Of a stretch of 64,000 bases of DNA, positions 16,188 through 55,867 are shown in pieces. The position numbers were made by a program, and so were the translations under genes. The first letter of the stretch is position 1. Every line of letters begins with the position of its first letter. The notes beneath the pieces were generated by a model, which worked only from the letters and a program-made list of their open reading frames with translations, did no database searches and had not been told where the DNA came from. Source of the stretch: an uncultured Clostridium sp. (GTDB taxonomy: Bacteria > Bacillota > Clostridia > TANB77 > CAG-508); NCBI GenBank assembly GCA_964370265.1, contig CAYJIP010000002.1, positions 52,620-116,619 on the forward strand, read 5' to 3'.

Positions 16188-16430
16188 CTAAATTATTTCA
16201 ATTATTTCTATTTCCATATTACTATCTATTTTTCCATATATACAAATATAGGTATTTTTCTTAAAATACCTATAACAAAAATCAGATATACCATTAATAG
16301 AATATACAAAAACTATTCCATTTTCTAATTCTACCTTGAATTTACATTTAGAATATGTTTTGGATTTATTAATAACAAACCTGTATTCAATATCACTCAC
16401 TATTTTTCCTGTTAAAAATACACTATTCAT
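16188..16430 (-). CDS. small OB-fold, SSB-like protein (80 aa), last gene of the DGR cassette
   Basis: MNSVFLTGKIVSDIEYRF...CKFKVELENG..VFVYSINGISDFCYRYFKKNTYICIYGKI follows the SSB/OB N-terminal pattern (MNxVxLxGxlxxDxExR ... KKGxxvxvxG). ATG at 16430 lies 5 nt after AGAGG. The track's longer ORF (to 16592) has no SD. Confidence 0.55.
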   Translation of the reverse strand: MNSVFLTGKIVSDIEYRFVINKSKTYSKCKFKVELENGIVFVYSINGISDFCYRYFKKNTYICIYGKIDSNMEIEIIEII

Positions 16431-16624
16431 TTTAACCTCTACATTAATTAATATATTTATATTTGTAATATATTCATTTTCAATACAAGAATATATATTT
16501 CTTTTATTTACTAACATATATATTACTGATTCATTTTTACCACTTAAGGATGGAATAAATCTCTTTAATACTAATATTATCACTGTATACATTCCTTAAA
16601 ATGTATAATCTCGATTCATATTAG
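16431..16624 (-). other. non-coding region immediately 3-prime of the TR (candidate DGR RNA spacer/priming region)
   Basis: 194 nt between the TR 3-prime end and the SD-supported start of the OB-fold ORF. Assigned by analogy with the Bordetella DGR, where the region 3-prime of the TR primes cDNA synthesis. Confidence 0.3.
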
Positions 16625-16756
16625 AGTACAGACCTAAAACCTATATTGCCATTAGTATTAGTGGGATTGTTGTTGTTTCTGTATGACGCTGGATTGTTCG
16701 AACCATTGTTGTTGTAATTACCTCCACGATTAACCGCTGGATTGTTAGTGTTAGAG
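16625..16756 (-). repeat. DGR template repeat (TR)
   Basis: Gap-free 132-bp alignment to 18865..18996 (offset 2240). All 16 mismatches have T on the plus strand (A on the coding strand) in this copy. It is non-coding; read in the VR frame it is Asn(AAY)-rich. Confidence 0.95.
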
Positions 16757-16801
16757 CTTTTGATTTATCCCAAAGTAAATTAATTTATACAAACTGTATA
16801 T

Positions 16802-17827
16802 TTACATATAAAACATAGTGTTTTCCAGATTCCAAGTATCTGCTATTTTCATATACCCTAAATGTCCTGCTAAATACTTTCTTGCTTCATAACAACTTAT
16901 TTCTCCATTTTTAACTTTCATTTTTAGTTTCTTAATCTTTTTCTTTAACTTTCGTTTCCCTTTATCTCTAATCTTAAGCCTATACTCATTTATTTTGTAT
17001 CCACAAAAATTAACTCCTTGTTTTCCTTTAAATATTTGTGTCTTACTATTTAACCTCAAACCTAATTTTATATCTAAAAACTCTGTTATTTTATTTAAAA
17101 TATCTTTTGCTTGTTGTTTTGTTTTTACAATTAAAACACTATCATCCATGTATCTAGCATAATACTTGATCTTTAATTCTTCTTTAATATATTTATCTAT
17201 TTCGTTTAAATATATATTAGCAAATATTTGAGATGTATAGTTACCTATTTCAATCCCAACTTCTTTTTTTTGTATATACAATATTTGCTTTATTAACCAC
17301 ATTACTTTTTTGTCTTTTATTTTTCTTTCTAATATTTTTATTAATATTTCCTTATTTATACTATCAAAATATTTAGCTACATCCATTTTTAATATATAGT
17401 ATTCTCCATATATGTTTTTAGCTTTTTTCATCATTTTTTGTACATATTCACAAGAACTATGCATTCCTTTGTTATTAATACATGCAAATGATGAATATAT
17501 AAACTTAGGAAAATATATTGGTTTTAATATATTATCTACTAACCATCTTTGTACTATTCTATCAATATATTTTGCTTTCTCTATTTTCCTTACTTTAGGT
17601 TCTGAAATATAGAATGTTGTATATGTACCATGACAATAACTCATATCAGATAATTTTTCATATAGCCATAATATATATTCCTCTTGCTTTAAATTAAATA
17701 AGATAATATCTTTCCTATATCCTTTTCCTTTTTTACTATCATTATGTGCTTTTATTAAAAGATCATATGTTAAAACTTTATCATAAACATTTTTAATTGT
17801 TTTTGCCATAAAATTTAACCATTCCAC
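16802..17827 (-). CDS. DGR reverse transcriptase
   Basis: Carries the RT motifs, including IGNYTSQIFANIYL ([I/L]GxxxSQ, the DGR hallmark) and the YMDD box (ARYMDDSVLIV). Alternative start ATG at 17809. Overlaps the avd stop. Confidence 0.95.
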   Translation of the reverse strand: MEWLNFMAKTIKNVYDKVLTYDLLIKAHNDSKKGKGYRKDIILFNLKQEEYILWLYEKLSDMSYCHGTYTTFYISEPKVRKIEKAKYIDRIVQRWLVDNILKPIYFPKFIYSSFACINNKGMHSSCEYVQKMMKKAKNIYGEYYILKMDVAKYFDSINKEILIKILERKIKDKKVMWLIKQILYIQKKEVGIEIGNYTSQIFANIYLNEIDKYIKEELKIKYYARYMDDSVLIVKTKQQAKDILNKITEFLDIKLGLRLNSKTQIFKGKQGVNFCGYKINEYRLKIRDKGKRKLKKKIKKLKMKVKNGEISCYEARKYLAGHLGYMKIADTWNLENTMFYM

Positions 17828-18158
17828 CTAATATTTTACCTATTTCATAAATTAATCCAATAGAAACATTAAATTTCTTTTCATCTATCCATTTATTCTT
17901 TTTCATTATCCTTAAATAAATTCTTTGTACATTTAATTTACTATCAATCCTGTTTAATATTTCTAAAACAAATATATTATCTTTTTTATTAATTTTTTCT
18001 AAATACAAAACATATTCTAACATTTCATACATGGATTTTTTAAAACTATTTCCAATACTAAATTTTTCTGTTCTAGGTAATTTAATTATACATTCAATCA
18101 TATACTCTATATATTTTTCACATTTAGGTATTAATTGTAATCTTTCACTTGTTTTCAT
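17793..18158 (-). CDS. avd: DGR accessory variability determinant (Avd, four-helix-bundle family)
   Basis: 121 aa, basic, helical. PRTEKFSIGNSFKKSMYEMLEYVLY ... IGKILGGMVKF matches the Avd / 23S-rRNA-IVS-protein pattern. Overlaps both neighbouring ORFs (coupled operon). Confidence 0.85.
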   Translation of the reverse strand: MKTSERLQLIPKCEKYIEYMIECIIKLPRTEKFSIGNSFKKSMYEMLEYVLYLEKINKKDNIFVLEILNRIDSKLNVQRIYLRIMKKNKWIDEKKFNVSIGLIYEIGKILGGMVKFYGKNN

Positions 18159-18591
18159 TTTCTAGTTCTTCTTTCAATTCATCTTGTTCCCACAATTTGC
18201 CTAAAGCTTCTAAATATTTTGTTTTTTCATATATAGCTTTAGATTTACATTCCATACAATTAATATTATTTGCAGAACTTTCAATTCTTTTCCCATCTTC
18301 CTTTTCACAAATTAAATTTAATTCTTCTTTTTCTGATATATATTTATATACAATATATGAATAATCTTTTTCATTTAACATGTCTATATATTTATCTAAA
18401 GATTTAATTGGAAATCCTACTTTACATACTCCTTTAGACATACAACTTAGTTTTAATCCTATAGCTTTATTTAATTCTATTGCATCTTTATGTGTAGCAA
18501 TATAGAAAATTCCTATTCCAACTAATACTATTTTACCTTCTTGTCTATCTTGTAATAATTCCATCATTCCTGTTAATGTCATCCCACACAT
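18145..18591 (-). CDS. MutS domain-I-like small protein (DGR accessory ORF)
   Basis: GMMELLQDRQEGKIVLVGIGIFYIATHKDAIELNKAIGLKLS..CKVGFPIKSLDKYIDMLNEKDYSYIVY aligns by eye with the MutS N-terminus in this window ([74 protein letters not shown]). SD AAAGGTGGA upstream. Confidence 0.65.
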   Translation of the reverse strand: MCGMTLTGMMELLQDRQEGKIVLVGIGIFYIATHKDAIELNKAIGLKLSCMSKGVCKVGFPIKSLDKYIDMLNEKDYSYIVYKYISEKEELNLICEKEDGKRIESSANNINCMECKSKAIYEKTKYLEALGKLWEQDELKEELENENK

Positions 18592-18615: not shown

Positions 18616-18707
18616 GGGCACCATAAGGCTTAGAAACGGCTAATGGCGCCACACCAGTGACGCCACACCAGTGGCGAAAATTGCTTTCTGGCAAAATTTC
18701 ATTTTGC
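18616..18707 (-). other. GC-rich structured element (tandem 14-bp repeat / multiple hairpins) in the target-accessory intergenic region
   Basis: 14-bp direct repeat gcgccacaccagtg/acgccacaccagtg (18646..18673). Hairpins cgccac-acca-gtggcg (18661..18676) and gcaaaat-ttc-attttgc (18691..18707). 8-bp stem 18617-24/18643-50 whose single non-Watson-Crick pair is G-U only in the minus-strand RNA. Confidence 0.45.
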
Positions 18708-18857: not shown

Positions 18858-20210
18858 CTAATAAAGTACAGACCTAAAACCTATAACGCCATCAGTATTA
18901 GTGGGATAGTCGTTGTAGCTGTATGACGCTGGATGGACCGAACCATTGCTGTCGTAATCACCTCCACGATTAACCGCTGGAAAGTTAGTGCTAGAGTTTG
19001 TTTCTAATGTCCATTCCCATACATTTCCTGCTATGTCATTTATATTTAATATTTCCGAATTTCCTACTTCTCCTGCTGTTCCTATTCCACTTAATGTATC
19101 ATTAGAAGCAGTTCCTGTATAATTCCCTATAGTTGTACTATCGTTATTTAATGTTGCTACAGGTATGCTTCCTCTAATTTCCATAAATTTAAGTATTAAA
19201 TCCCATTGGAATCCAAACATTAAACTTCCTGTTGTTCCTTCTAAATTCATACTTTCTGCTTTAGTTTGAGAATTTTCTTTATTTATATTAATATATATCG
19301 TAGCTCCATATCCTGATACAGGTGTATTTGCAACTCCAGCTACTGTTGCATTTCCAACTTCATATCTTGATACCCAGAATCCTTCTTTTTCATATATACT
19401 TTTTAATACTGCATTTTTTTGTGTATTATATGTGTCTTCACTTGTAAATACTCCTGAATTAGCTCTATATTCATCTGAATACGTATAATTTCCATATTTC
19501 GGTGTCTTATATTCTGATGTATAGCTATTTATATTTTCCTCTATTTTTGTATAATCAGTTGATGATGTTACTCCTGAATTAATACTATCTTGTGGTACTT
19601 CTACCCATACCCATTCATTGTTATTTTTATTTGTATCAACCATTACTAAACCTTCATTTACACTATCTTCTGTTTCTTCTGTTGATACTTTACCACCTTC
19701 TGGTATTAATACTGTTTTTCCATCTGGATCAGTATATTCTTCTCCACCTGCTCCTGCTACATCACCTTTTGCTAATCCTTCTGTATCAGTTCCTGTTCCT
19801 CCTGAACTTGTTTCTCCAGGTTTTTTAACTTCTACTTCATATCCATTCATTTCTACTTTTATTGGATATTGAGTGTCTAATATATCTGTTGTTGTACTTG
19901 GTATATCTGAACCATCTGCTCCTGTTATTTTTGTTGCTCCTTCTTTAAATAGTTCTTCTACCATTGTTTTTTCATTTACTTTTCCTGTATTGTCATAACT
20001 TCCTAATATTGCTAATGTTACTTTTTCTTCTGCTTCTGCTCTTGCTGTTTCTTCTCCTGCTTTTGTTGCTTGAGTTAATATTCCATTTTCTCCTGTTAAC
20101 ATTGCTATTGATACTCCTGCTAATATTAGAAGTACAATTATTGTTATTACTAAGCTTATTAATGTAATACCTTTAGTTTGTTTTAAACTTATTTTTGTTT
20201 TTTCTTTCAT
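18858..20210 (-). CDS. DGR variable (target) protein: prepilin-like N-terminal TM segment + FGE/sulfatase-modifying-factor-like C-type lectin domain
   Basis: N-terminus MKEKTKISLKQTKGITLISLVITIIVLLILAGVSI (pilin-like). C-terminal motifs GFWVSRYEVG, FGFQWDLILKFM, AGNVWEWT, NRGGDY, IGFRSVLY. The VR occupies the last ~44 codons. Confidence 0.9.
   Translation of the reverse strand: MKEKTKISLKQTKGITLISLVITIIVLLILAGVSIAMLTGENGILTQATKAGEETARAEAEEKVTLAILGSYDNTGKVNEKTMVEELFKEGATKITGADGSDIPSTTTDILDTQYPIKVEMNGYEVEVKKPGETSSGGTGTDTEGLAKGDVAGAGGEEYTDPDGKTVLIPEGGKVSTEETEDSVNEGLVMVDTNKNNNEWVWVEVPQDSINSGVTSSTDYTKIEENINSYTSEYKTPKYGNYTYSDEYRANSGVFTSEDTYNTQKNAVLKSIYEKEGFWVSRYEVGNATVAGVANTPVSGYGATIYININKENSQTKAESMNLEGTTGSLMFGFQWDLILKFMEIRGSIPVATLNNDSTTIGNYTGTASNDTLSGIGTAGEVGNSEILNINDIAGNVWEWTLETNSSTNFPAVNRGGDYDSNGSVHPASYSYNDYPTNTDGVIGFRSVLY
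18865..18996 (-). repeat. DGR variable repeat (VR)
   Basis: See TR. Lies inside the 3-prime end of ORF 18858..20210. 16 substitutions relative to the TR, all at TR adenines, changing 13 residues. Confidence 0.95.
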
Positions 20211-43235: not shown

Positions 43236-45848
43236 TTACTGCATTTTCTCTTTTATTCTTGATAGTGTATTTAATGCATCTATTGGTGTTAATTCATTTA
43301 AATTTATTTTATCAATTTCATGTGCTATTTCTGCTAATTTATAGTTAAACATATCAAATTGACCTTCAACTTGTTTCTTAGTTTCTTTTTCAATTTTTTT
43401 ATCAGACATAATACTTTTCTTTTCTAATTTTTTCAATATTTCATTTGCTTTTTGTGTTACAACTTTTGGAACCCCAGCTAGACGTGCTACATGTATTCCA
43501 TAACTATCATCAGTTCCACCTCTTACTATTTTACGTAAAAATATTATATCTTCTCCTTTTTCTTTAACTGCTACTGAATAATTTTTAACACCTTCTAGTT
43601 TATCTTCTAATTCAACCAATTCATGATAATGTGTTGCAAATAATGTTTTGGCACCACATTTTTCTGAATCTGCAATAAATTCTGCTACTGCCCATGCTAT
43701 AGATAATCCATCATATGTAGATGTTCCTCTACCTATTTCATCTAGGATTACAAGGCTTTTATTTGTTGCTTCATTTAATATTGTTGCAACCTCCATCATT
43801 TCAACCATAAAAGTACTTTGTCCTTGACTTAAGTCATCTGATGCACCTACTCTTGTAAAGATTTTATCTACAATTCCTATATCCGCTTTATTAGCTGGCA
43901 CGAATGAACCTATTTGAGCCATTAAATTAATTAATGCAACTTGTCTCATATATGTTGATTTACCTGCCATATTTGGCCCTGTTATTATTGACAACCTATT
44001 ATCATCTCTATCTAAATATGTATCATTGTCAACAAATTGCCCTATTCCTATTATTTTTTCAATAACTGGATGTCTTCCACCTTCTATATTCAATACTCCT
44101 GATGTATTAATATTAGGCATACAATAGTTTAAATCTTCTGCTACTATTGCAAATGATGTTAATACATCAAGTGTAGAAATAGCTTCTGCTGTTTTTTGTA
44201 ATCTTCTAATATTTTTAGCAATTTCTAATCTTATTTGATTAAAAGCTTCATATTCCAATACAACAACTTTTTCTTCTGCTCCTAATATTTGTTCTTCAAA
44301 ATTTTTCAATTCTTCTGTTATATATCTTTCACAATTTGCTAATGTCTGTTTTCTAATAAATCTATCTGGAACTTCACTTAAAAACGATTTTGTAACTTCA
44401 AAATAGTAACCAAATATTTTATTAAATCCAATTTTAAGATTTTTAATACCTGTTTTTTCTTTTTCTTCTGCTTCTAAATTTATTAACCAATTCTTTCCTT
44501 CTGTCCCTGCCAATTTTAATTTATCTATTTCTGCGTCAAAACCAAGTTTTATAATGCCTCCATCTTTAATTGTTATTGGTGGTTCTTCTACTATTGCTTT
44601 ATCTATTATTTTTTCTAAATCTTGAAGATCTTCTAACTCTTCATTTAATTTTTTTATTAATTCAGAATTACAATTAGATATTTCTATTTTCAATTCAGGT
44701 AATCGTTGAAGTGAATTTTTAAGTGTTATCATATCTCTTGCATTACAATTTCCATATGTCATTTTCGCTGCCAATCGTTCGATATCATATACTTTTTTTA
44801 GATTTTCTATAATATCGCCTCTAAGCATAATATTATCTTTTAATTCTTGTACCGATTCTAATCTTCTACTTATTTCTAAAGCATCAATTAATGGATCATT
44901 TATCCATCTTCTTAATTGTCTAGCCCCCATCGATGTAGATGTTTTATCTAATACCCACAAAAGAGTTCCTTTTTTAGATTTATCTTTCATTCTTTCTGTT
45001 AATTCAAGATTTCTTCTAGCATTTATATCTAAAGCCATATATTTTGATATTTGATATATATTAATTTTATTTATATGTTCCAAACTAGTTTTTTGAGTTT
45101 GAGCTATGTATTCTGTTAAAGCATTAATTGAACTCACATATATAGCATCTTCATTTATTTTCTCTATTTCAGTATTATTCGGACCATATATTGTATATTT
45201 ATTTAATAAGTTTTCAGCATCATTTGTGAAGAATTTGTCATTAAATCGTGTAATATATGACTCGAATCTCTCTTTAATTTTAGCTATCTCATCACTACAA
45301 TCGTACATCATTGAATTTACTATTAATTCTGACGGAGTAAATCTTGCTATCTCATCAAGTAATAATGGAAAATTATGTGTTCCTCTTATTTCAGATGAAT
45401 AAAATTCACCTGTTGAAATATCACATACACTTATTCCAAAATATATACCTGTTTTATATATTGACATTATATAATTATTTCTTTTTTCTTCAAGCATATT
45501 GCTTTCAACTATTGTTCCTGGTGTTACTACTCTGACAACACCTCTTTCAACAATACCTTTTGTTTCTTTAGGGTCTGATAATTGCTCACATATTGCGACT
45601 TTAAATCCTTTTTCAATTAGTCTTGCTATATATGTTTCTGCTGAATGATGCGGAACTCCAGCCATTGGTGCTTTCTCCTCAGCTCCACAAGCTTTTCCTG
45701 TTAATGTTAATTCTAATTCTCGTGATACTGTTATTGCATCATCAAAAAACATTTCATAAAAATCGCCTAATCTATAGAATAGGATACAATCTTTATATTC
45801 TTCTTTTGTTTCAAGATATTTTTGCATCATAGGTGAATATTGTGTCAC
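43236..45848 (-). CDS. mutS: DNA mismatch repair protein MutS
   Basis: GDFYEMFFDDA (domain I), GPNMAGKSTYMRQ (Walker A), DEIGRGTSTYDG. Confidence 0.95.
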   Translation of the reverse strand: MTQYSPMMQKYLETKEEYKDCILFYRLGDFYEMFFDDAITVSRELELTLTGKACGAEEKAPMAGVPHHSAETYIARLIEKGFKVAICEQLSDPKETKGIVERGVVRVVTPGTIVESNMLEEKRNNYIMSIYKTGIYFGISVCDISTGEFYSSEIRGTHNFPLLLDEIARFTPSELIVNSMMYDCSDEIAKIKERFESYITRFNDKFFTNDAENLLNKYTIYGPNNTEIEKINEDAIYVSSINALTEYIAQTQKTSLEHINKINIYQISKYMALDINARRNLELTERMKDKSKKGTLLWVLDKTSTSMGARQLRRWINDPLIDALEISRRLESVQELKDNIMLRGDIIENLKKVYDIERLAAKMTYGNCNARDMITLKNSLQRLPELKIEISNCNSELIKKLNEELEDLQDLEKIIDKAIVEEPPITIKDGGIIKLGFDAEIDKLKLAGTEGKNWLINLEAEEKEKTGIKNLKIGFNKIFGYYFEVTKSFLSEVPDRFIRKQTLANCERYITEELKNFEEQILGAEEKVVVLEYEAFNQIRLEIAKNIRRLQKTAEAISTLDVLTSFAIVAEDLNYCMPNINTSGVLNIEGGRHPVIEKIIGIGQFVDNDTYLDRDDNRLSIITGPNMAGKSTYMRQVALINLMAQIGSFVPANKADIGIVDKIFTRVGASDDLSQGQSTFMVEMMEVATILNEATNKSLVILDEIGRGTSTYDGLSIAWAVAEFIADSEKCGAKTLFATHYHELVELEDKLEGVKNYSVAVKEKGEDIIFLRKIVRGGTDDSYGIHVARLAGVPKVVTQKANEILKKLEKKSIMSDKKIEKETKKQVEGQFDMFNYKLAEIAHEIDKINLNELTPIDALNTLSRIKEKMQ

Positions 45849-51679: not shown

Positions 51680-53077
51680 CTATAATTCATTAAATGTTTT
51701 AGTGTTTACACTATTACCATTTTCTCCTTCGATTCTTGAATTTGATAAATTTTTCCTTCTTTGAAATAGTGAATCATTTCTTGAAATATTTTGAATTTCT
51801 GATTTAGTTTCTTTTTCATATGTATGTCTTGCGCTTGAATTACGATACTTTGAATATATCAGAGCATAATATATCGGTCCAGCTAAAAATCCTAGATATT
51901 CTAATCCATCAAAATCCAAAATCAATGCACATATTATACCTAATAATTCGACTATACATGATATACCAAATAACTTAGGTTTATGAATAGGAACACTCCC
52001 CATAGTTTCTTTTGTTCTAGCATTTACAGATACATAGTGTAATTGTTTTTTTGTTGATGAAACTTCTTGATAACTATATAACCAAACTGGTAAATATGCT
52101 GAAATCCATTTTTGTCCTTTTATACCAATTGCTTCTTTTTTCCAAGAAACACCTCTATTATATTTTGTCAAGTCACTATTTATTGCATGTCTTGCAATAT
52201 CTCTTGTTTGAGCATTAACTAATTTAGATAATTCATCTATATTTGTATCTCTTTTTTCAGATGTATATCCTTTTATATAATTCGCATCCCATTTCACACT
52301 ATTTTCAATGTCGAATGGCATTATTGAATTTATAATATTTGTTGTTTTAACGCTATCTTTATAGTTTAGTTTATCTTTATTTGACTCAACAGTTAGATTA
52401 TCTATATGAATATCAAATTCTCTTTCAACATTATAGCAATCTGCATCATAATATCTTACATAATTATCTCCACGTTTCACTCTGTATGTTCTTGTTTGTA
52501 CTTCTGCATGTCCTTCTAATTTAGCATGTGCATTTACGTCAACAACATAATATGGAAAATATACTCCCTTTATATTTTCTGTAGTAAATTCTTGCTTGAA
52601 TTTCGGATGCGCATAAAATTTTCTTCTACCAACAAAATCTTCTATCATTTGACGTGCGTCAGATTTTTCTGTTCTAAATGGTAATACATAATCTGGTACA
52701 GCACCGTTTGGTATTTGCTCATTTATTGATAATGTATTTCGACACCAATGACATCTTGCTTGTGTTACTTCATTTGTATCAATAACAACTTCTGCTCCAC
52801 AACTAGTACATTTTAATGTCAGCATATCTTTTTCATCTGCAATAATATTTTTAGTTCCTGATCCTATTGTTAAACCTTCTAATTCAGAAACATTCCCAAC
52901 AAGTCCATCTACAACTTCTGGTTTAAATCTATGTCTACAAAAGTTACATACTAACATTCCTGTTTTAGGATCTAAAGTTATATCTGTAGCTCCACATTTA
53001 GGACATTTAGATTGTCCCATACCTTTTCCGCTATTTGTATCAACGATTTTTATTTCTTCATCATTAACAATATTCAT
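51680..53077 (-). CDS. double zinc-ribbon membrane protein (YdjG-like)
   Basis: CPKCGA..CNFCRH and CTSCGA..CHWCRN zinc ribbons, with C-terminal TM helices. ATG at 53077 lies 1 nt after the upstream stop (coupled). The track start at 53116 is unlikely. Confidence 0.55.
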   Translation of the reverse strand: MNIVNDEEIKIVDTNSGKGMGQSKCPKCGATDITLDPKTGMLVCNFCRHRFKPEVVDGLVGNVSELEGLTIGSGTKNIIADEKDMLTLKCTSCGAEVVIDTNEVTQARCHWCRNTLSINEQIPNGAVPDYVLPFRTEKSDARQMIEDFVGRRKFYAHPKFKQEFTTENIKGVYFPYYVVDVNAHAKLEGHAEVQTRTYRVKRGDNYVRYYDADCYNVEREFDIHIDNLTVESNKDKLNYKDSVKTTNIINSIMPFDIENSVKWDANYIKGYTSEKRDTNIDELSKLVNAQTRDIARHAINSDLTKYNRGVSWKKEAIGIKGQKWISAYLPVWLYSYQEVSSTKKQLHYVSVNARTKETMGSVPIHKPKLFGISCIVELLGIICALILDFDGLEYLGFLAGPIYYALIYSKYRNSSARHTYEKETKSEIQNISRNDSLFQRRKNLSNSRIEGENGNSVNTKTFNEL

Positions 53078-54502: not shown

Positions 54503-55867
54503 TTAATATAAAACTACTCTAAATCCAACATCTTCTAAATATGATGTTGTTGAATGAATTCTTCTTGTTGCCACAGACCCTTGTGATTGTGTACCATTCA
54601 TTCCTGAAAGTAAATAATTTCCGCCTCTACTAACAATAGGATATTGAGAAGATGCATTACTATTTTCTAATGTGAATTCATAAGCATTTCCTGCTAAATC
54701 ATATATATTTAGTATTTCATTTGTCACATTATTCCCTGTAATTGTAGCTCCTGTAGTTAATAAGAATGCTGCATTTTGTGCTTTAGTTACACTACTTTCC
54801 ACAGTTAAATATTGTGGCATTCTTCCTGCTATATATTCTTGATATTTTCCACTTGTTAACTGATAACTTGTATTTCTGTGATTCCCTATATTCGTACTAT
54901 TAATTAATAGTGTACTTTCTTCCACATCACCTGAAATTTGCATAAATTTCAATATTAAATCCCATTGAAATCCGAACATTAGTGATGAATTATATTCTTC
55001 ATTGCTCAATGTTTTTGCAGCAGTAGTTGCTTGTCCTATTGTAACATAGTTATATACAAACTTATCTTTTTGTACTACCATTGTCGATATTTGGTTAGTG
55101 CTAGAACTAGAGTAATCTCTTTGTATTGTTTCACTTATACCTGATTCATATCTACCAACCCAAAATCCATTATATTCATATATACTTTCAAGTATAGCAT
55201 CTTTAACATCAGAATTTTCCGGATCTGTGTGTACCTCTTTTTTATATGCTGATACATATCTATTTATATCTTCTTCTATCTTATCGTGGTCACTTATTTT
55301 TGTATCTTCACTAAATTCTTCTTCTGGCATAGGAATCCATACAAATTCGTTCCCGTCTAGCGTCATTACTAAACCTTCTTCTATTTCATCTTCATCTGTA
55401 TTTGGTGATAAAATGGCTCCATCTGGTAAAAACACATCTGGATAAATAGCTGTTGTTCCCATACTATCTGGTTTTTCAACTTCTATATCATATCCATCTA
55501 CTGTTACTGTTATTGGATAATCATTATCCGGCAAGTCTAAAGTCCCTTCTGGTACATTACCTGTTTCTAATCCAGTTATTTTTTCTGATATTTTCCAAAG
55601 TTCTTCTAATAACTTTGATTCTACTAAATCTCCTGAATTATTATGACTTCCTAATATTGCAACTTTAACTTTTTCTTCTGCTGCTGCTTTTTTTGATTCA
55701 GATGATGAATCTTCTGCTTGATTTAATATTCCATTATCTCCTGTTAATAAACCTATTGATACCCCTGCTAGTATTAGAAGTACTATTATTGTTATAACAA
55801 GTGATATAAGCGTTATCCCCTTATTTTTGTTCATTTTTTGTCTTTCTTTTAAAGTTTCTTTTCTCAT
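54503..55867 (-). CDS. pilin-like N-terminus + FGE/C-type-lectin-like protein, paralog of the DGR target (no match to this TR)
   Basis: KGITLISLVITIIVLLILAGVSIGLLTGDNGIL, GFWVGRYESG, SLMFGFQWDLILKFM, AGNAYEFT and VGFRVVLY all parallel ORF 18858..20210. Confidence 0.85.
   Translation of the reverse strand: MRKETLKERQKMNKNKGITLISLVITIIVLLILAGVSIGLLTGDNGILNQAEDSSSESKKAAAEEKVKVAILGSHNNSGDLVESKLLEELWKISEKITGLETGNVPEGTLDLPDNDYPITVTVDGYDIEVEKPDSMGTTAIYPDVFLPDGAILSPNTDEDEIEEGLVMTLDGNEFVWIPMPEEEFSEDTKISDHDKIEEDINRYVSAYKKEVHTDPENSDVKDAILESIYEYNGFWVGRYESGISETIQRDYSSSSTNQISTMVVQKDKFVYNYVTIGQATTAAKTLSNEEYNSSLMFGFQWDLILKFMQISGDVEESTLLINSTNIGNHRNTSYQLTSGKYQEYIAGRMPQYLTVESSVTKAQNAAFLLTTGATITGNNVTNEILNIYDLAGNAYEFTLENSNASSQYPIVSRGGNYLLSGMNGTQSQGSVATRRIHSTTSYLEDVGFRVVLY

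Follow-up and report, generated by a model that had tools for sequence, protein, structure and literature searches.

The msl gene and its retroelement cassette

The 64,000-nt stretch of DNA analysed here (the window; positions 52,620 to 116,619 of contig CAYJIP010000002.1, assembly GCA_964370265.1, from an uncultured Clostridium sp. of the CAG-508 lineage) carries a diversity-generating retroelement (DGR) with a small open reading frame (ORF), msl, whose product consists of the MutS domain that recognises mismatches (domain I) alone, a short Cys-bearing tail and a C-terminal helix. On the minus strand the cassette runs from the target gene with its variable repeat (VR) through a 266-nt spacer to msl, avd, the reverse transcriptase (RT) gene, the template repeat (TR), an RT-14 RNA and a gene for a miniature protein resembling single-stranded DNA-binding protein (mini-SSB) (Table 1). 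TR and VR differ at 19 positions, 17 of which are TR adenines, and in the core all 15 differences fall at adenines, mostly at codon positions 1 and 2. The Avd protein scored 68.7 bits against DivGenRetAVD, under the 80-bit cut-off, and a bAvd match was also found, while the target protein joins a pilin-like hydrophobic N-terminus to a C-terminus with weak likeness to FGE-sulfatase and C-type-lectin domains. The DGR is chromosomal and cellular, since it lies among housekeeping genes (smpB, sua5, a zinc ABC transporter and a Fur-family regulator) and no relative was found in viral or phage collections.

The TGA stop codon of msl occupies 18147..18145 and the avd ATG 18158-18156, giving an overlap of exactly 14 nt (ATGAAAACAAGTGA), the length given in an earlier note made from the sequence of this DNA alone; msl and avd ORFs also overlap in 43 of 55 related loci. 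The gene shares a transcript with avd and RT, and translation of Msl is probably coupled to that of Avd. The true start of msl is probably the second ATG (Met4, 18582), which would give a protein of 145 aa, because all relatives begin at the equivalent Met (MGFSKM…), because the spacing of the Shine-Dalgarno sequence AAAGGTGG favours it (the sequence ends 9 nt 5' of the Met4 codon and directly abuts the first ATG), and because the recorded gene call is likewise 145 aa.

Table 1. Positions of msl, its sequence features, the DGR cassette and features of related loci. Coordinates without a locus name are those of the window.
Feature	Position	Strand	Description or basis
msl ORF	18145..18591	minus	stand-alone MutS-domain-I-like DGR accessory protein; 148 aa from first ATG
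MutS_I-like core, residues 13-91	18319..18555	minus	Pfam PF01624, AlphaFold2 pLDDT, Foldseek
G27-x-F29-Y30-I31 motif (MutS G-D-F-Y-E)	18499..18513	minus	profile alignment, family conservation
Cys50-x5-Cys56 loop and K57-V-G-F-P	18424..18444	minus	family conservation
Cys112-x2-Cys115, C-terminal extension	18247..18258	minus	family conservation; tail not placed by AlphaFold2
DGR target gene	18858..20210	minus	450 aa, VR-bearing C-terminus; ORF and domain scan
VR, 3' end of target gene	18859..18999	minus	TR/VR comparison
Tandem hairpin pair between target gene and msl	18644..18676	minus	identical GC-rich units, CACTGGTGTGGCG twice
avd	17793..18158	minus	bAvd-like, 121 aa, pI 9.6; overlaps msl end
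DGR RT	16802..17827	minus	341 aa, RVT_1, IGNYTSQ and YMDD; overlaps avd
TR, downstream of RT	16619..16759	minus	TR/VR comparison
RT-14 RNA (Rfam RF02921), immediately 3' of TR	16488..16626	minus	92.2 bits, gathering score 48.1
Mini-SSB gene	16188..16430	minus	80 aa, OB-fold/SSB-like, lacks C-terminal tail; last gene of cassette type
Full-length mutS	43236..45848	minus	domains I-V, 25 kb from msl
Target-protein paralogue	54506-55852	minus	38% identity over full length
RT-14 RNA in relatives	L008 3581-3731; L013 3552-3704; L016 3578-3739; L026 8014-8161; L053 7919-8056		
Mini-SSB gene in relatives (examples)	L001 2989-3237; L008 3792-4040; L013 3767-4018		
msl of second clade (examples)	L068 5959-6387; L074 2069-2497; L080 5959-6381		
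DGR RT split by an insert	L028 2934-5813; L030 6798-9680; L055 914-3796		414-aa RT-like ORF in the insert

Msl as a MutS domain I on its own

Msl matched the Pfam family MutS_I (PF01624) over residues 13-91 with 28.8 bits (gathering score 20.6, E 1.6e-6), as did 18 of 19 Msl family members (best E 1.7e-9). An AlphaFold2 model built on a 19-sequence alignment had confidence scores (pLDDT) of 88-96 across approximately residues 11-100 and below 50 across residues 106-122. When this model was compared to the PDB with Foldseek, the top 50 matches were all the N-terminal domain (domain I) of MutS or MSH proteins (best E 3e-6, root-mean-square deviation of about 2 Å, 84-106 aligned columns), and the PDB matches included the crystal structures of E. 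coli MutS E38A, E38Q and E38T on a G.T mismatch (1wbb, 1wbd, 1wb9). The homology is nevertheless remote and rests on profile and fold, because a pairwise BLASTP comparison of Msl with the MutS of the window was not significant (E 0.3, in the wrong register) and searches against PDB sequences were marginal or empty (MutS only at E 1.2 with phmmer; nothing at E<=0.01 with a narrow Msl family profile, A2). A scan of NCBIfam gave MutS equivalog matches for Msl only below threshold.

Profile-profile alignment (hhalign) of Msl with the full-length MutS encoded in the window placed G27-I-F29-Y30-I31 on G-D-F-Y-E, with F29 at the Phe and I31 at the Glu of the MutS Phe-x-Glu motif. This reproduces the register that the earlier note had drawn by eye and, together with conservation in the family, bears out its reading that the intercalating Phe is retained and the Glu replaced by Ile. 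MutS_I was the sole domain matched in the 148 aa of Msl, with no match to the connector, core and clamp domains (II-IV) or to the MutS_V ATPase, so that of the features of a functional MutS Msl retains the Phe and lacks the Glu, domains II-IV and ATPase domain V. The proposal in the earlier note that this ORF is a MutS homologue reduced to domain I, with neither ATPase nor clamp, is thereby upheld by the Pfam score and the fold comparison.

A word-indexed search recovered 33 relatives of Msl at 42-56% identity, all 87-200 aa long, and an exhaustive profile search recovered 665 clusters (at 50% identity) at E<=1e-3, 223 of them at E<=1e-10. Because the best 150 of the 665 clusters are all 64-269 aa in length, Msl represents a dedicated family of small proteins and not a collection of MutS fragments. 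The possibility that low-scoring matches in genomes were full-length mutS genes was rejected, since each of them is either a short ORF (105-230 aa) or is fused in frame to a fragment of RT.

Residue conservation was counted across 84 near-full-length relatives. G27 is present in 82, F29 in 83 and A37 in 81; C50, C56 and K57 are each present in 82, G59 and P61 each in 79, C112 in 72 and C115 in 75. At the position of the MutS Glu the commonest residues are Ile (46), Val (20) and Thr (6). As judged from this alignment, the predicted stacking Phe is the best-kept functional residue of Msl and the Glu that contacts the mismatch in MutS is systematically gone. The Cys50-x5-Cys56 loop, followed by a near-invariant K57-V-G-F-P, takes the place of a longer loop in MutS, and the family-specific tail and Cys motif are not found in MutS. 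C50 and C56 together with C112 and C115 (Cx5C…CxxC) are a candidate four-Cys metal site, possibly for Zn, that would join the tail to the core.

This Cys quartet is specific to the clade of the window protein. A second Msl clade (L065-L086, 123-145 aa, with the pattern MSKLY…GIFFI…KCGFP…SLEKY) has none of the four Cys; its members retain the Phe, have lost the Glu, and have a different helical tail and a more MutS-like N-terminus. They lie upstream of avd and of an RT that is longer (about 370-390 aa), and no mini-SSB gene is present.

Rough Nei-Gojobori estimates placed dN/dS at about 0.42 in msl, 0.26 in avd and 0.17 in RT, and identity of relatives to the window proteins was about 45% for Msl, 63% for Avd and 67% for RT. 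By these estimates msl is under purifying selection yet the least constrained of the three genes. Given the 25% G+C content of the genome, in which spurious ORFs are common, and the visible decay of many related DGR copies, msl might be taken for a functionless remnant of a duplicated mutS or for a chance ORF. We regard this as extremely improbable, and the pattern of conservation already contradicts it: G27, F29, C50, C56, K57, G59 and P61 are near-invariant across hundreds of clusters of one small size, dN/dS is below 1, the gene has a fixed place upstream of avd, and its tail and Cys motif are not those of MutS.

Relatives of msl and other parts of the cassette

Linkage of msl to DGRs was surveyed by scanning one genome per species, which gave 80 loci, all from metagenome-assembled genomes (MAGs) of gut-type Clostridia or Bacilli (human, chicken, rabbit). 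With hidden Markov models built from the window proteins, an intact msl-avd-RT arrangement on one strand was found at 51 of the 80, and a DGR RT lay in the fetched flanks of 71; loci without the intact arrangement are mostly deletion derivatives, decayed copies or ends of contigs. On six contigs that carry one Msl relative (L001-L006) the order is msl-avd-RT-SSB in every case, and across related loci the position of msl upstream of avd is fixed. The gene is thus conserved beside DGR RTs, a point on which the earlier note had staked its reading.

Several MAGs contain two copies of the cassette, in some cases one intact and one decayed. Many related cassettes have decayed by deletion: avd is lost together with some or all of RT, and what remains is the target gene, the mini-SSB gene and msl in its 5' part. 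In five loci msl is fused in frame to RT fragments (L018, L034, L042, L057, L058), and in four a fragment of msl is followed directly by the SSB-like gene (L041, L046, L049, L063). In three further loci (L028, L030, L055) the DGR RT is split into parts of about 231 and 117 aa by an insert with a 414-aa RT-like ORF, which looks like a group II intron.

A MutS-homologous class, MSL, is one of four classes of DGR accessory protein described by Wu et al. (Nucleic Acids Res 2017/2018, PMC5758913); its members, from 16 of 372 DGRs, are 112-283 aa in length with a pI of 7.2 +/- 1.7 and occur always with avd and never with HRDC ('Architecture D'), and one belongs to a Legionella DGR; the class is repeated in a review (PMC8632793), and Msl is also present in the Bacteroides DGRs Bfr, Bth and Bun (bioRxiv 10.1101/2024.11.15.621889). 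The window protein agrees with this class in size (148 or 145 aa), in MutS homology, in lying within a DGR cassette with an RT and an adenine-specific TR/VR pair, and in co-occurring with avd, which it overlaps, with no HRDC match among msl, avd, RT and the target gene as scanned. In pI, a descriptive and not a defining trait of the class, the window protein has 5.2 and the 84 relatives average 8.55 +/- 1.0, against the near-neutral survey value. On size, MutS homology, DGR context and avd co-occurrence, with published members compared by description only, the window ORF is almost certainly the MSL accessory protein of a chromosomal DGR; it adds a member to a published class and does not found a new one. 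The MutS-like accessory class of DGR surveys that the earlier note mentioned is this one, and its statement that no functional characterisation was known agrees with our literature searches, which found no functional test of any Msl, only the survey, one review and passing mentions, and the same for RT-14.

Two further parts of the cassette lie beyond TR. The RT-14 RNA, which in this avd-RT-TR architecture is presumably a structured spacer within the DGR RNA that primes cDNA synthesis, was found at the equivalent position in five of eight relatives scanned (73-114 bits), and L080 gave a weak match on the opposite strand. The mini-SSB gene recurs in about 50 other loci besides those listed in Table 1. 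Pfam found nothing at E<=0.001 in the window mini-SSB alone, which was recognised only via its relatives: 8 of 13 members had a weak match to the SSB family PF00436 (best E 7.5e-8). An alternative ORF call of 134 aa overlaps the RT-14 RNA and probably does not begin at the real start. Literature searches found no paper describing an SSB-like DGR accessory gene.

These parts bear on a reading in which Msl is a subunit of the RT-Avd-RNA particle during cDNA synthesis and binds either the primer terminus or the mispaired hybrid of TR RNA and cDNA. It would thereby allow adenine misincorporations to be tolerated and extended, or the finished cDNA to be handed on, and would not act on a DNA/DNA heteroduplex at VR. 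The probable translational coupling of msl to avd and their strict co-occurrence fit this reading, and a MutS_I motif reported in the C-terminal extension of three DGR RTs (PMC5758913) offers a Rosetta-stone hint of a physical association. The RT-14 RNA and mini-SSB of the cassette, probably acting on RNA or cDNA, would also suit it. However, Bordetella bRT-Avd alone is reported to carry out adenine mutagenesis in vitro, Msl is missing from most DGRs, and the Phe wedge of MutS acts on B-form DNA duplexes and not on A-form RNA/DNA hybrids. We therefore consider a place for Msl in this particle rather unlikely.

The spacer between the target gene and msl contains a tandem pair of hairpins; such a pair is also present at 42 of 79 related loci, at a distance of 50-130 nt upstream of msl. 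The two units are identical, each 12-17 nt long with a 4-6-bp stem and a 4-nt loop, and the stems vary from locus to locus with both units changing together (CCAC/GTGG, CCCC/GGGG, TCACC/GGTGA, CTTCC/GGAAG and others). In relatives TTTTTTGTGC usually comes after the pair, giving it the look of a terminator; the window copy lacks a T-run. The 266-nt spacer as a whole folds with z = -4.2, and a scan of the window for promoter and terminator consensus sequences found none in the interval from the target gene to msl. Placed between target gene and retroelement machinery, the tandem hairpin could be an attenuator; it could also be a hairpin or cruciform for target recognition.

In another reading Msl is a structure-specific DNA binder for target recognition or cDNA integration, whose substrate near VR would be a branched intermediate, a D-loop, or a hairpin or cruciform, and not base mismatches. 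The compensatory stem changes in this hairpin between VR and msl would fit such a role, as would the loss of the Glu, which, from work on MutS E38, should lower mismatch specificity. Against this, at most loci the hairpin with its T-run resembles an ordinary intrinsic terminator, and the MutS relatives that bind junctions (MutS2, MSH4/5) are those without domain I. A structure-specific role for Msl is improbable on this balance.

A paralogue of the target protein is encoded elsewhere in the window (Table 1). It has no VR matching TR and apparently belongs to the same surface-protein family without being diversified.

Proposed role of Msl and comparison with known systems

The main open step of DGR biology is the replacement of VR by cDNA and the escape of the mismatched intermediate from repair. 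For a Bacteroides DGR that lacks Msl, retrohoming rose 5-10-fold once host mutS was deleted, and the mutation pattern stayed the same; the authors read this as all-or-nothing repair of the heteroduplex (10.1101/2024.11.15.621889). Because host MutS cuts retrohoming to this extent, at least in that one DGR, a MutS domain I encoded by a retroelement suggests itself as the counter-measure. MutL-E32K or deletion of mutS also benefits retron recombineering and engineered DGRs, and the Msl class was the reason cited for giving one engineered DGR a dominant-negative MutL; retrohoming in E. coli depends on the direction of replication and is inhibited by ExoI. Further background is that E. coli MutS altered at Glu38 to Ala, Gln or Thr is still found on a G.T mismatch in crystals, and that some DGR RTs, three in the survey of Wu et al., bear a MutS_I motif themselves (PMC5758913).

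We propose, with a probability of roughly 0.4, that Msl is an ATPase-less mismatch cap that shields the cDNA/VR heteroduplex from host MutS. The RT would copy TR into adenine-mutagenised cDNA, and pairing of this cDNA with VR would produce a heteroduplex dense in mismatches, at whose distorted sites the conserved Phe wedge of Msl (G-x-F-Y) might insert. Since Msl has no connector, clamp or ABC-ATPase and the Glu that authorises repair is gone, it would be unable to signal to MutL; it would instead occupy the lesion and prevent host MutS from restoring the parental VR, and a larger number of retrohoming events would survive as a result. The cap is the most economical model because Msl keeps the wedge but has lost every part needed for signalling. 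The earlier note had likewise suggested a role in protecting or channelling the mismatched intermediates.

Several observations weigh against a mismatch cap. The window Msl, with a net charge of -4.4 and a pI well below its family mean (5.2 versus 8.55), is an outlier in its family and a poor fit to simple DNA binding, and msl evolves faster than its neighbours in the operon. Most DGRs do without the protein (present in 16/372; PMC5758913), and work cited in that survey reports that MutS is not required for the Bordetella phage DGR to retrohome. An E. coli repair assay showed no MutS effect either; the 18-nt insertion that it uses is not one on which MutS acts. Binding of DNA by an isolated domain I is presumed here, and our literature searches found no experiment on any Msl.

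The three Msl-bearing Bacteroides DGRs, furthermore, have low activity. This last point would fit a different function, in which Msl acts as a brake or tuner that binds mismatched intermediates and thereby lowers retrohoming or biases the events that survive: Bfr, Bth and Bun carry Msl and are of low activity, and Bov and Bfi lack it and are constitutively active (10.1101/2024.11.15.621889). The authors, however, tie the difference in activity to transcript levels of avd, TR and rt, the comparison covers five elements only, and a brake placed inside the same coupled operon as the machinery it restrains is less parsimonious. We consider a braking function improbable, and of the functions weighed here we favour the mismatch cap.

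A more specific form of the cap, which we put forward tentatively and regard as somewhat unlikely, is that Msl of the window clade is a cap stapled by a metal (Cx5C…CxxC) and devoid of an ATPase, with which the retroelement inhibits host mismatch repair (MMR), and that it acts together with the mini-SSB of the cassette, which would protect the cDNA. If this were true, the DGR would carry its own anti-MMR and single-stranded-DNA-handling helpers, as engineers add to recombineering, and would make the cDNA-integration step of mutagenic retrohoming directly accessible to genetics. The window provides a clean, intact example of msl in a genome that also encodes a full-length MutS, and the large set of relatives defines the invariant residues (F29, K57 and the Cys quartet). 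It also brings out two further conserved parts of the cassette, the mini-SSB gene and the RT-14 RNA, and, as a side observation, the covarying tandem hairpin. The msl gene of the window is a clean, well-populated entry point for a first functional test of Msl.

Compared to MutS domain I, Msl has the same fold, G-x-F-Y register and stacking Phe, and it retains the downstream G-[FV]-P and the hydrophobic strands. It differs in having no domains II-V, and hence no ATPase, clamp, dimerisation or MutL activation, in the replacement of the Glu of Phe-x-Glu by Ile, Val or Thr, and in the shortening of the long MutS loop before P-M-A-G-V-P to C-x5-C-K-V-G-F-P. Compared to published MSL proteins, it is likewise small, MutS-homologous and located in a DGR cassette with avd and without HRDC, whereas its clade adds the Cys quartet and the C-terminal helix and the window protein is acidic. 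Set beside published MSL DGRs, the cassette has the order target-msl-avd-RT-TR, followed by the RT-14 RNA and the mini-SSB gene. The DGR RTs with a MutS_I-like C-terminal extension (PMC5758913) combine the same domain with the same machinery; in the window the domain has an ORF to itself, upstream of avd.

Predicted viral proteins (BFVD) that consist of MutS_I on its own, from giant viruses and gut phages, resemble Msl in fold and size class, and include those of Siphoviridae sp. ctZro7 (153 aa), Myoviridae sp. ctPuP5 (84 aa), Myoviridae sp. ctsK93 (74 aa) and Klosneuvirus (135 aa); at the sequence level, a scan of viral_contigs and tblastn of phage records found no relatives of the window Msl clade. 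The suppression of MMR in recombineering and in reconstituted DGRs, by deletion of mutS or by MutL E32K, would have the same effect as Msl if the shielding model is right, namely the escape of a mismatched heteroduplex derived from single-stranded DNA from MutS/MutL. It works through a different protein and a different point of attack, and the corresponding effect of Msl is a proposed one: a retroelement would itself supply, by covering mismatches, the protection that in those systems comes from disabling the repair machinery of the host.

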